In this document: positions 2,747-34,156 of the stretch, piece by piece
How the letters are laid out: every line of letters begins with the position of its first letter
Numbering within the stretch: the stretch's first letter is position 1
Virus record (IMG/VR): IMGVR_UViG_3300044695_008209
Span: 1 to 64,000 of that record
From: a virus
Length of the DNA: 64,000 bases
Reading direction: 5' to 3' (one strand)
Program-made: the position numbers and the translations under genes
The notes under the pieces: generated by a model
Seen by the model: only the letters and a program-made list of their open reading frames with translations
Databases searched by the model: none
Told to the model about the DNA's origin: nothing

Positions 2747-3135
2747 GTGATCAGTTCTCCGAGAATGGCGGGCCTCGTGCGGGTCTGGAAGTCGACCTGC
2801 TCGTAGATCACCGTGTTGTGTCCGTCGACCTCGAAGTCGAACGCCGCGTGGACGAACGTGAGGTCCTCCGCAACCACCTCACCGGGGTGCACCCCGACGC
2901 GCTCGATGCGCAGGACCAGCCCCTCCTCCCACTCTTTCAGGAGGGGGATGTCGGCCGGCATCAGGAGGCGCTTGATGCGGATGCCCCACAACTGGTTCCC
3001 CTCCCCCGGCATCTCGTGCTTCAGGAAGATGTCCGCGGTCTGGCCCATGCCGGCGACGACCTCGTCGCCACGACAGAGCACCAGGATCTGGTGGCCGAGC
3101 AGGGCCCGCTTCTTGGGCAGTTCGCGGTGGCTCAC
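2743..3135 (-). CDS. hypothetical protein (130 aa)
   Basis: ATGA/GTGA overlaps, codon bias. Confidence 0.7.
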   Translation of the reverse strand: MSHRELPKKRALLGHQILVLCRGDEVVAGMGQTADIFLKHEMPGEGNQLWGIRIKRLLMPADIPLLKEWEEGLVLRIERVGVHPGEVVAEDLTFVHAAFDFEVDGHNTVIYEQVDFQTRTRPAILGELIT

Positions 3136-3359
3136 GCCCGCTCCTGCGCTTCGGCGATCGTCTTGGCCGCGGCGTCCCGTCCCTGCAGGCGCAGGAGCAG
3201 GACCATCGAGCTGTTGATGTCACCGATGCTCTTGGGCACGAACCCGCCCTTCCCCAGCCATTCAGCGAGGTCCTCGCATGCCTCCAGGAAGGGCTCCATG
3301 TCCACGGCGCCCTCGCCGCAGGCGTCCAGAATGCGCTGCACGCAGACTTCAGGATCCAT
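3132..3359 (-). CDS. hypothetical protein (75 aa)
   Basis: GGAGG upstream, codon bias. Confidence 0.7.
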   Translation of the reverse strand: MDPEVCVQRILDACGEGAVDMEPFLEACEDLAEWLGKGGFVPKSIGDINSSMVLLLRLQGRDAAAKTIAEAQERA

Positions 3360-3654
3360 CAGGTACCTCCAACTTCCCGTCGTCCGGGAGCTCTGCTGCG
3401 TTGACCCGGTGCACGAGCACGTAGGCGTGGTTGATCACGGTGTCGGTGTCGGGGAGCCGCGCCGGCAGCTCCAGGAACGTGCAGCCCTCCCCGTACCGGA
3501 GGAACTGCACGTGCCCGCGCTTCGAGGAGTCGAAGTTCAGGTTCGTGATGGGCCCGAACACCGAGTCCGGGCGCGTCATCGTCACGTCGTACTCCTGGTC
3601 GGTGCTCCGCTTCCAGATCGCCTGTCCGTACTTCGACTGTCCGTTCACGCCCAT
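3349..3654 (-). CDS. hypothetical protein (101 aa)
   Basis: GGAGG RBS, codon bias. Confidence 0.7.
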   Translation of the reverse strand: MGVNGQSKYGQAIWKRSTDQEYDVTMTRPDSVFGPITNLNFDSSKRGHVQFLRYGEGCTFLELPARLPDTDTVINHAYVLVHRVNAAELPDDGKLEVPDGS

Positions 3655-29693: not shown

Positions 29694-29781
29694 GGGCGAC
29701 TCCGGGGAGTGCAGGCTTATGCCCGAACGCGCAGGTGCATTGGGCTAAACGGACAGTCCCCCGCGGGGGACTGTCCTCTGC

Positions 29782-32076: not shown

Positions 32077-32123
32077 GTTCACCTCACCATACTTATGCCC
32101 AGAATCGGCCGGGGTTTGAGCTA

Positions 32124-33360: not shown

Positions 33361-33400
33361 GTTCACCTCACTCCTCTTATGCCCGAAGAAGGCCGTATCT

Positions 33401-33450
33401 TGGCTAAAAGAGCGCGACCACCACCGTACTCCCTTCCGGTGGTGGTCGCG
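33401..33450 (-). terminator. intrinsic terminator-like hairpin
   Basis: Perfect 14-bp stem 33413-33426/33437-33450, 10-nt loop, then CTCTTTTAGC on minus strand. Confidence 0.8.
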
Positions 33451-33466
33451 TCTTGTCCTGAAGTAG

Positions 33467-33694
33467 TGGAGGGGAGGGGACTCGAACCCCACTCGCCCGC
33501 TTCGTTCCGACCAGTTAGCCGCTCTTCGCCCCCCTGCAGGGATTCAAGATGCTGGTCCAGCGCCTCACTCAGAGCTGCGCAGACCGCGATGCGTGATTTA
33601 GGCGTGAGTCTCGACCGACTTCCTCGGTCCTCAGTTCGTGCGAGCCTCGTGTCCGTCTATTAGGACGTCCGGCACCTGCACGGATTCCCCCTCC
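33467..33694 (-). ncRNA. 228-nt tRNA-shaped RNA with ~150-nt insertion (tRNA/tmRNA-like)
   Basis: Acceptor GGAGGGG/CCCCTCC+A; D arm TCCG/CGGA with GG; CGTC-CTAATA-GACG arm; T arm GGGG-TTCGAGT-CCCC; own promoter and terminator; no encoded CCA. Confidence 0.7.
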
Positions 33695-33712
33695 AGCACA
33701 CTTATGCCCGAA

Positions 33713-34156
33713 CTACGCGGCGTTTTCCACACGGAAGGTGCCGTCCGGCCAGACGATGAAGACCGGAATGCCGCGCTTCCTGGCCCTGCGGATCGTCGAC
33801 CAGGTGCCCGACCGGAGCTCTTCCTCGAACCCCGCCGGCGCGGCGATGAGGACGTCGCTCTCATCCACGATGTCCTGATTGCGGTCCAGGGGCGGCTTCG
33901 GGGGCCTCTCGCTGAGGTAGTACGGCAGCGCGTCGTGCCACTTCAGGCAGTTCGCCCGCTTCGACGGGATGTCGCATGGGTGCGCGATCACGTTGATGCT
34001 GCGGACGCCGCACAGGTAGTCGAACTCCCCATCGGCGCCGACGCAGTCGCCGTGCCGCGCGAACGAGATGTCCTGCGTGTCCGAGAGCATCTCGCCCACG
34101 CGGAGCTTCTGGGCCCCGGTCATGCCCTTCTGGGTCCCGGTGAACCCGACGATCAT
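33713..34156 (-). CDS. SLOG-superfamily (DprA/YspA-like) nucleotide-binding protein
   Basis: IVGFTG...HGDCVGAD...LDRNQDIVDESDVLIA...SGTWSTIRRARKRGIPV. Confidence 0.8.
   Translation of the reverse strand: MIVGFTGTQKGMTGAQKLRVGEMLSDTQDISFARHGDCVGADGEFDYLCGVRSINVIAHPCDIPSKRANCLKWHDALPYYLSERPPKPPLDRNQDIVDESDVLIAAPAGFEEELRSGTWSTIRRARKRGIPVFIVWPDGTFRVENAA

Follow-up and report, generated by a model that had tools for sequence, protein, structure and literature searches.

The analysis concerns the first 64 kb, referred to below as the window, of a virus record of 182,777 bp (IMG/VR record IMGVR_UViG_3300044695_008209; 99% complete according to CheckV, 66% G+C). On its minus strand the window encodes an RNA shaped like a transfer RNA (tRNA), with a predicted mature length of 228 nucleotides (nt), from G1 (33694) to the discriminator base A (33467; the whole at 33467..33694). 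To judge from its sequence, this RNA is very probably a tRNA mimic that does not decode and that derives from a class II tRNA of the tRNA-Tyr type. Three homologues were found in metagenomic phage contigs, namely, L045 (2671-2896), L044 (1409-1641) and the most divergent one, L053 (1282-1489). With the four members found, the RNA represents a new and rare family within a known general kind, the non-coding RNAs of phages that resemble tRNA. What sets it apart is that its class II cloverleaf is complete and that the variable arm makes up the main body of the molecule. The gene is a single-copy transcription unit free of open reading frames (ORFs), in a phage genome that has no genes for tRNA or transfer-messenger RNA (tmRNA).

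The acceptor stem comprises seven base pairs (bp) formed by GGAGGGG (nt 1-7; 33688..33694, minus strand) and CCCCUCC (33474-33468), the latter followed by the discriminator A (3' strand and discriminator together at 33467..33474). All seven pairs are formed in all four sequences; the 5' strand occurs as GGAGGGG, GGAGAGG or GGAGACG, each with a complementary 3' strand. Both partners are replaced at pairs 5 and 6 (G-C to A-U and G-C to C-G), while G1-C72, G2-C71, A3-U70, G4-C69 and the discriminator A73 are invariant. In the window the discriminator is directly followed by CUA on the minus strand (33466-33464), giving an ACUA end, and by CCA in the three homologues, all of which end in ACCA (...CUCCACCA); because of this agreement, the ACUA of the window is regarded as a C-to-U change in an encoded CCA. 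The acceptor end is apparently under selection, since pairs 1-4, A73 and, in three of four sequences, CCA are fixed while pairs 5-7 covary.

Three nt, rather than two, separate the acceptor strand from a D-arm-like hairpin (nt 11-27; 33668..33684, minus strand) with a 4-bp stem and a 9-nt loop containing GG. The stem reads UCCG/CGGA in the window and GCCA/UUGC in L044, so that, as read from the sequences, both partners differ in the outer and in the inner pair. The anticodon-arm-like hairpin that follows (nt 29-44; 33651..33666, minus strand) has a 4-bp stem, GUCC/GGAC in the window and L045 and CUUC/GAAG in L044 (two pairs changed on both sides), and an A/U-rich loop. This loop is 8 nt long in these three sequences; its sequence varies and U33 is missing from it, and L053 has a loop word closely resembling it. 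It thus differs from the tRNA anticodon arm, which has a 5-bp stem and a 7-nt loop with U33, a three-nt anticodon and a purine at position 37. The T arm (nt 204-220; 33475..33491, minus strand) consists of the stem GGGG/CCCC, a U-U apposition at 49:65 and a 7-nt loop, UUCGAGU or UUCAAGU among the homologues, and it directly abuts the acceptor 3' strand, as in tRNA. In L053 the T stem covaries (GUGGG/CCCGC), the loop is UGGAAUC, with the UUC lost, and the D arm is absent; an interaction between the D-loop GG and the T-loop UC in the other three RNAs would predict this joint loss. All cloverleaf elements of a tRNA other than the anticodon arm, i.e. the 7-bp acceptor, the D arm, the T-loop consensus and the discriminator with CCA, are therefore present, the ACCA in three of the four sequences.

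An earlier prediction made from the letters of the window alone (the original prediction) had described the acceptor stem with A33467 followed by CTA, the D stem TCCG/CGGA with its GG-containing loop and the T arm GGGG-TTCGAGT-CCCC, and all of them lie where it placed them. Its anticodon-like hairpin exists as well, although the proposed CGTC/GACG register with a 6-nt loop is the poorer reading, since it is the GUCC/GGAC register with the 8-nt loop that is common to L045 and covaries in L044. It had further suggested that covariation among homologues be sought, and compensatory changes are indeed seen in the proposed cloverleaf stems across the three homologues.

The insert occupies the variable-arm position of the tRNA frame. 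It is closed by an 8-bp helix whose 5' strand (nt 51-58; 33637..33644, minus strand) lies at the place of the variable-arm stem and whose 3' strand (nt 196-203; 33492..33499, minus strand) ends one nt before the T stem. When the window, L045 and L044 are compared, two of its pairs differ in both partners and three in one. The interior (nt 59-195; 33500..33636, minus strand) measures 137 nt and contains invariant sequence blocks; the longest invariant blocks of the RNA are found here and not in the tRNA frame. Compensatory changes were observed in a local hairpin (nt 66-82; 33629-33613, minus strand) and in a two-part central hairpin, GGUC-GCGC...GCGC-GACC (nt 110-141; 33585-33554, minus strand). 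A long-range alternative, in which nt 79-83 pair with nt 174-178, also covaries. The predicted domain of about 150 nt closed by CTCGC/GCGAG proved to begin with this 8-bp helix, and the predicted GACCGA-GGAAG-TCGGTC hairpin is present. The CTCAC/GTGAG helix found no support, GUGAG being absent in L044; the supported central hairpin is that of nt 110-141. A further hairpin is the palindrome CCCUGCAGGG (nt 154-163; 33541-33532, minus strand), a PstI site in the DNA, which is invariant in all four RNAs, the divergent L053 included, and could form either a 3-bp hairpin or a self-complementary kissing loop.

A formal count covered 47 pairs in the four sequences, with partners slid by 1-3 columns as controls. 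Of the cells, 86.5% were paired, as compared to 40-53% after sliding, and 13 pairs were changed on both sides, as compared to 0-3; none of 500 shuffles reached either observed value, but these counts are indicative only, because the alignment was fitted to the model and three of the sequences are closely related. The absence of D-stem double changes from the formal count is explained by the misalignment of L044 at this place in the model-fitted alignment. With the D stem read from the sequences, outside the formal count, compensatory changes occur in eight helices. The folding energy of the whole molecule is unremarkable (z about -0.8), and the structural evidence, as obtained from these sequences, is comparative rather than thermodynamic.

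On the native sequence the RNA is invisible to the standard tools. ARAGORN found no tRNA or tmRNA genes in the window or in the whole genome. Searches against Rfam 15 returned no match at gathering thresholds, and raising the expectation value (E) to 10 yielded noise alone (Pxr, snoRNA and tRNA-Sec). The tRNA-Sec match, at 15 bits against a gathering score of 47 and covering the last 72 nt of the RNA, was the sole one from the tRNA clan; the tRNA model RF00005 did not match at E up to 10. The tmRNA model RF00023 matched nowhere in the genome, no group I or group II intron family of Rfam matched the RNA, and no conserved ORF runs across the homologues. A covariance model of the RNA (R1) found one copy in the 183-kb genome. 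These ARAGORN and Rfam runs, which the original prediction had proposed, place the RNA in neither an ordinary tRNA nor an ordinary tmRNA family, in line with its claim that the molecule is neither a standard tRNA nor a standard tmRNA.

The class II frame becomes visible to ARAGORN when the insert is shortened. In capped constructs, the interior of the insert beyond the closing helix was swapped in silico for a tetraloop and ARAGORN was run at default thresholds. It called a long-variable-arm tRNA in each of the constructs from the window, L045 and L044, with the D arm drawn. In the window and L044 constructs the true acceptor was kept and the 8-nt loops were assigned 4-nt 'anticodons', while in the L045 construct the acceptor register was shifted and the loop was 6 nt long. 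A broader deletion scan of the insert gave a similar picture, the 'anticodons' being 4 or 2 nt long over both tests. The acceptor and A73 of the L044 RNA are identical to those of a phage tRNA-Tyr(GUA) in contig L005, in agreement with the tRNA-Tyr-type acceptor recognised originally. Because of the capped calls and this acceptor match, the frame is assigned to a class II tRNA of the Tyr type.

The homologues were reached via the gene downstream of the RNA, P0002, by inspecting the gene contexts of its relatives for an RNA upstream. Among the 26 relatives of P0002, 12 contexts were looked up and three contain the RNA. Its identity to the window copy is 85% in L045, 70% in L044 and 59% in L053, about the same as that of the flanking protein genes. 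A nucleotide search of the phage collection with the RNA gave no match. Exact and degenerate DNA patterns of the RNA retrieved nothing from IMG/VR, and a pattern search of metagenome contigs was also empty. A three-block pattern run on 185,579 prokaryote genomes picked out 91 stretches, none of which the covariance model upheld. In IMG/VR the closest relative (G001), searched over its whole genome, has no copy of the RNA, and the syntenic site runs directly into the next gene. Since this relative and most of the P0002-gene contexts examined have no RNA upstream, the RNA is considered an accessory cassette.

The RNA gene appears to have its own promoter and terminator. The promoter-like region (33701..33727, minus strand) consists of a GAAAAC box (33727-33722), a 15-nt spacer holding the stop codon of the upstream gene and a CATAAG -10-like box (33706-33701) that ends exactly 6 nt before G1, a gap of the same length in the window, L045, L044 and L053. 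CATAAG occurs 37 times on the minus strand of the genome and not once on the plus strand. Most copies lie 5-7 nt upstream of starts of the GAGGTGAAC-ATG type, often with a GAAAAC-like box 15 nt upstream; further examples in the window are at 33376-33381, 32092-32097 and 29716-29721. As it is strand-specific and mostly located just upstream of ATG starts with a Shine-Dalgarno (SD) sequence, CATAAG is regarded as a promoter-like -10 element of the phage, and we infer that it marks a phage-specific promoter class with very short leaders. Downstream lies an intrinsic terminator (33406..33454, minus strand) with 14 perfect bp (33450-33437 with 33426-33413), a 10-nt loop and a U-run; the hairpin has an energy of -35.2 kcal/mol (z -5.8), and none of 200 shuffles was equally stable. 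L045 retains the terminator, a compensatory change included, and in L044 its place is taken by another strong hairpin. The promoter, its CATAAG box upstream of G1 and the perfect 14-bp terminator had all been part of the original prediction, and this part of it is supported. A simple consensus scanner called neither site of the RNA gene, because the promoter does not follow the sigma-70 consensus and the terminator loop of 10 nt exceeds the limit of 8. A 12-nt direct repeat brackets the RNA unit and was considered as a possible trace of a mobile element; this was rejected, as the two repeats are promoter copies, one belonging to the RNA and the other being the CATAAG region of the next gene (33381-33376), and the repeat, which is the promoter consensus, is present throughout the genome.

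Several identities were considered for the RNA and rejected. A decoding tRNA is excluded by the size and sequence of the anticodon-like loop, with no RF00005 or native ARAGORN match. An alternative internal acceptor strand, a G-run that would give G3:U70, shows no covariation with the 3' strand of L053. A copy of a host tRNA end of the kind found in phage attachment sites (attP) does not fit, since the RNA has both strands of the acceptor and a full cloverleaf. In 401 actinobacterial genomes there was no tRNA with an equal 3' half, and the best ones had 1-2 mismatches and belonged to other identities. Three of the genomes in this tally (G181, G089 and G095) are unpublished, and the conclusion would stand without them.

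How such a molecule would act can be outlined tentatively. Transcription would start at G1 from the CATAAG promoter, which would make an RNase P step unnecessary, and end at the terminator, and host tRNA 3'-processing enzymes would trim the transcript to the discriminator or to CCA, the CUA copy of the window being completed by the host CCA-adding enzyme. By its L-shaped frame, with an acceptor end and an elbow like those of a tRNA, the RNA may then engage a host factor that recognises class II tRNAs; candidate partners are a synthetase, EF-Tu or the ribosome, and also a toxin or defence enzyme directed against tRNA. The activity specific to the phage, by which that factor might for example be sequestered or blocked, would reside in the invariant blocks of the variable arm. 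Toxins of a suitable kind exist in Actinobacteria: MenT3 of Mycobacterium is a tRNA-directed toxin that depends on a long variable loop (PMC11162799). Phage tRNA genes are also known to counter tRNA-depleting defences (PMC11555353). We give this mechanism somewhat less than an even chance, and the explanation as a whole, a phage gene for a non-decoding tRNA mimic of about 228 nt acting in this way, roughly an even one.

A number of observations weigh against this explanation. The RNA is dispensable, since the closest relative and most phages with the P0002 gene do without it, and the copy in the window has CUA instead of CCA. Four members are few and three of them are closely related, so that common descent may explain part of the conservation at the acceptor top. 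The interior topology of the insert is ambiguous between local-hairpin and long-range pairing. Genes for SmpB, a CCA-adding enzyme, Thg1 and RtcB are absent from the phage genome, and in the T5 precedent the phage tRNA has to work as a decoder, not as a decoy (PMC11555353).

Of the competing explanations, the one with the most in its favour takes the frame as a mere scaffold, serving for stability and trimming as in engineered tRNA scaffolds, while the domain of about 150 nt acts outside tRNA biology on a phage or host protein or on an RNA target. It would account for the location of the longest invariant blocks in the insert and not in the frame, for an anticodon loop that is free to drift and for the promoter-to-terminator cassette of the 'moron' type. 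However, it leaves unexplained why acceptor pairs 1-4, A73 and CCA are fixed as against the variable pairs 5-7. In addition, the RNA has no antisense target longer than 13 nt in its own genome (23 twelve-mers, with 12.4 expected from shuffles) and none that rises above background, and no Rfam motif was found within the insert. A scaffolded effector is an unlikely but appreciable alternative. Rather improbable is a joint reading in which the RNA would be a counterpart, made of RNA alone, of the tmRNA-SmpB particle, or an evolutionary intermediate of this design, or else a dedicated decoy. In the first version, the D and anticodon-like arms would take the part of SmpB, the variable arm would carry the large functional domain, and a non-alanine synthetase would charge the RNA by its A73 and Tyr/Leu-type acceptor, after which it would enter or block ribosomes or rescue factors; as a decoy, it would soak up toxins or defence enzymes aimed at long-variable-arm tRNAs. 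A plain tmRNA analogue, entering stalled ribosomes, or a decoy titrating SmpB, is improbable as well. The giant domain departs from the tRNA body along the direction of a class II variable arm, like the connector helix of tmRNA, the acceptor 3' end (...CUCCACCA) is as in tmRNA, and mycobacteriophage DS6A provides a precedent with an RNA consisting only of a tRNA-like domain (TLD), proposed to titrate SmpB, a TLD-like molecule being inhibitory to tmRNA (PMC4131195). A stop triplet, UAA or UGA, stands at one invariant box in all four sequences, and the tmRNA model gave one match of 20 bits on L045. But this match was below the threshold and was not reproduced, ARAGORN reported no tmRNA, no SmpB gene is present, and the peptides upstream of the stop differ; no tag peptide is conserved, because 1-nt indels shift the frames between the window and L045. 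Moreover, A3:U70 is invariant in the four RNAs while G3:U70 is completely conserved in tmRNA (PMC3985003), and the D and anticodon-like arms sit where SmpB would. A tmRNA proper is rejected on the same grounds, i.e. A3:U70 in all four sequences, the two arms and the missing tag frame. The original prediction had noted that A3:U70 and a D stem set the RNA apart from tmRNA, and both observations hold, with the D hairpin covarying and being absent in L053.

A decaying tRNA pseudogene, or a chance tRNA-like stem in a spacer, would be compatible with the degenerate anticodon loop, the CUA in place of CCA, the folding z of -0.8 and the rarity of the family. It is made very improbable by the compensatory changes in eight helices and the long invariant blocks, by conservation equal to that of the neighbouring genes and by a dedicated promoter and terminator kept in four phages. 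That the insert is an intron, spliced out to give a working tRNA, is scarcely credible. ARAGORN can be forced at an 80% threshold to draw a tRNA with a 148-nt intron in the window, but with introns allowed at default settings it finds nothing in any homologue, and the relaxed models disagree among themselves (Thr-GGU, Leu-UAG and Leu-CAG). The insert lies at the variable-arm position, not in the anticodon loop, and its removal in silico leaves a loop of 6 or 8 nt; no group I or group II family matches, and the group I introns known to us are larger than about 150 nt. An equally slight chance is given to a small protein gene, for which the GGAGG at the 5' end resembles the SD sequences after other CATAAG boxes, with a GUG 8 nt further on (nt 14-16 in the window) opening a 16-codon ORF. 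The start codon and the ORF are absent in L045 and L044, and substitutions and indels track base pairing, not codons. Among the three options put forward originally, the tRNA mimic therefore survives, while the intron-containing tRNA falls on the position of the insert and the inconsistent models, and the minimal tmRNA on A3:U70 and the missing tag.

The RNA gene is flanked by two small genes on the same strand. The upstream gene, P0001 (33713..34156, minus strand), codes for a SLOG/DprA-like Rossmann protein of 147 amino acids (model pLDDT, the predicted local distance difference test score, 92.7). Its best Foldseek match is ShosA (8zva; E 4.7e-5, TM, i.e. template modelling, score 0.68), the DprA-like component of the ShosTA system; DprA, LOG and YpsA were matched as well, and PF10686 was matched by 2 of 18 relatives. 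The gene precedes the RNA in the window, L045 and L044 and not in L053. Judging from the model, the stand-alone phage protein could be a counter-defence protein. In three contigs of more distant phages (L015, L017 and L018), a homologue of P0001 is followed within about 70 nt by a tRNA-Gln.

The downstream gene, P0002 (32932..33360, minus strand), follows the RNA in all four loci and has an SD-ATG start after its own CATAAG box (33381-33376). Its product is an all-alpha, weakly MazG-like protein of 142 amino acids (model pLDDT 94); the best matches, MazG pyrophosphohydrolases (3crc and 1vmg), are weak, and no Pfam or PHROG family was assigned. An acidic motif, E..E...E / REEW.D, is invariant and resembles the metal-binding acidic motif of MazG-type NTP pyrophosphohydrolases. 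With such neighbours, the setting of the RNA looks like an early, takeover-type block of small genes.

The surroundings of P0002 homologues contain further elements of interest. In related phages this neighbourhood is rich in tRNA genes, with tRNA arrays within 2 kb in L046 and L053, unlike in the phage of the window. Contigs L046 (about 2810-3240, minus strand) and, likewise, L047, which come from another phage with the P0002 gene, carry in a tRNA array several tRNA-like genes with non-canonical T loops that are missed by ARAGORN. One of these, L046 3046-2975, is a 72-nt element with a G3:U70 acceptor and ACCA; except at position 3, its acceptor is the same as in the L053 RNA. In L053, about 510 nt of G+C-rich, ORF-poor sequence (1490-2000) lie between the RNA and the P0002 homologue, with many short hairpins, repeated CCCGAGAG words and no Rfam match. 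A Thg1-like gene is located about 1 kb from the P0002 homologue in L071-L073 (about 2963-3438); Thg1-like enzymes are 3'-5' nucleotidyltransferases for tRNA 5' ends.

As the sole tRNA-like gene of a 183-kb phage, provided with its own strong promoter-like box, the RNA gene argues for a dedicated role in takeover or counter-defence, not for codon supply. Its tRNA-Tyr-type acceptor end is kept under apparent selection while the anticodon decays. Non-decoding tRNA look-alikes encoded by phages are encountered again and again, and to our knowledge almost none has a known function. If the partner is a synthetase, the ribosome or a tRNA-directed toxin, the RNA would provide a testable case in which phages of high-GC hosts use tRNA mimicry as a weapon. 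The family is also a potential new entry for RNA family databases.

Among known tRNA-like RNAs, the YrlA-type bacterial Y RNAs are tRNA mimics bound by Ro60/Rsr that also occur in actinobacterial phages (PMC4201824). They share with the RNA of the window the combination of a non-coding RNA with a tRNA-like module. However, the ends of YrlA form the Ro-binding stem and its tRNA-like part is internal, whereas here the ends form an acceptor stem with a free ACCA. No Y-RNA or YrlA family of Rfam matched, and the adjacent genes are the SLOG-like and the MazG-like ones, although no search for Ro60/rsr elsewhere was made. The species 1 and species 2 RNAs of phage T4 (rnaC and rnaD) are stable phage RNAs with a tRNA-like acceptor/T-arm frame, no usable anticodon and an extra structured insert, and their function is not known. 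The likeness to them is one of description, and the RNA of the window differs in belonging to another sequence family, found in high-GC phages, in keeping the D and anticodon-like arms, in having its insert in the variable arm and in lying outside any tRNA array, in a genome without tRNA genes.

Like tmRNA (SsrA; RF00023), of which phage-encoded examples exist, the RNA has an acceptor/T-arm module that wraps a large domain exiting along the variable-arm direction; the connector helix of tmRNA points along the direction of a long variable arm according to Bessho 2007, as cited in PMC3985003. It differs from tmRNA in its length of 228 nt, in A3:U70, in having a D stem and an anticodon-like arm and in the lack of a conserved tag frame, and no series of pseudoknots of the tmRNA kind was identified in it. 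With the bacterial and phage class II tRNAs (tRNA-Tyr, tRNA-Leu and tRNA-Ser; RF00005) the RNA shares the 7-bp acceptor, A73, a D arm with GG, a canonical T arm, the encoded CCA (in the relatives) and a helix that leaves the frame between the anticodon and T arms. Unlike these tRNAs, it has a 4-bp anticodon stem with an 8-nt loop without U33 and is not called natively by the tRNA model or ARAGORN, and its variable arm measures about 150 nt, in contrast to about 13-25 nt in class II tRNAs. With its complete class II cloverleaf, it shows the conversion of a tRNA into something else through growth of the variable arm, at the very point where the body of tmRNA leaves its tRNA-like part.

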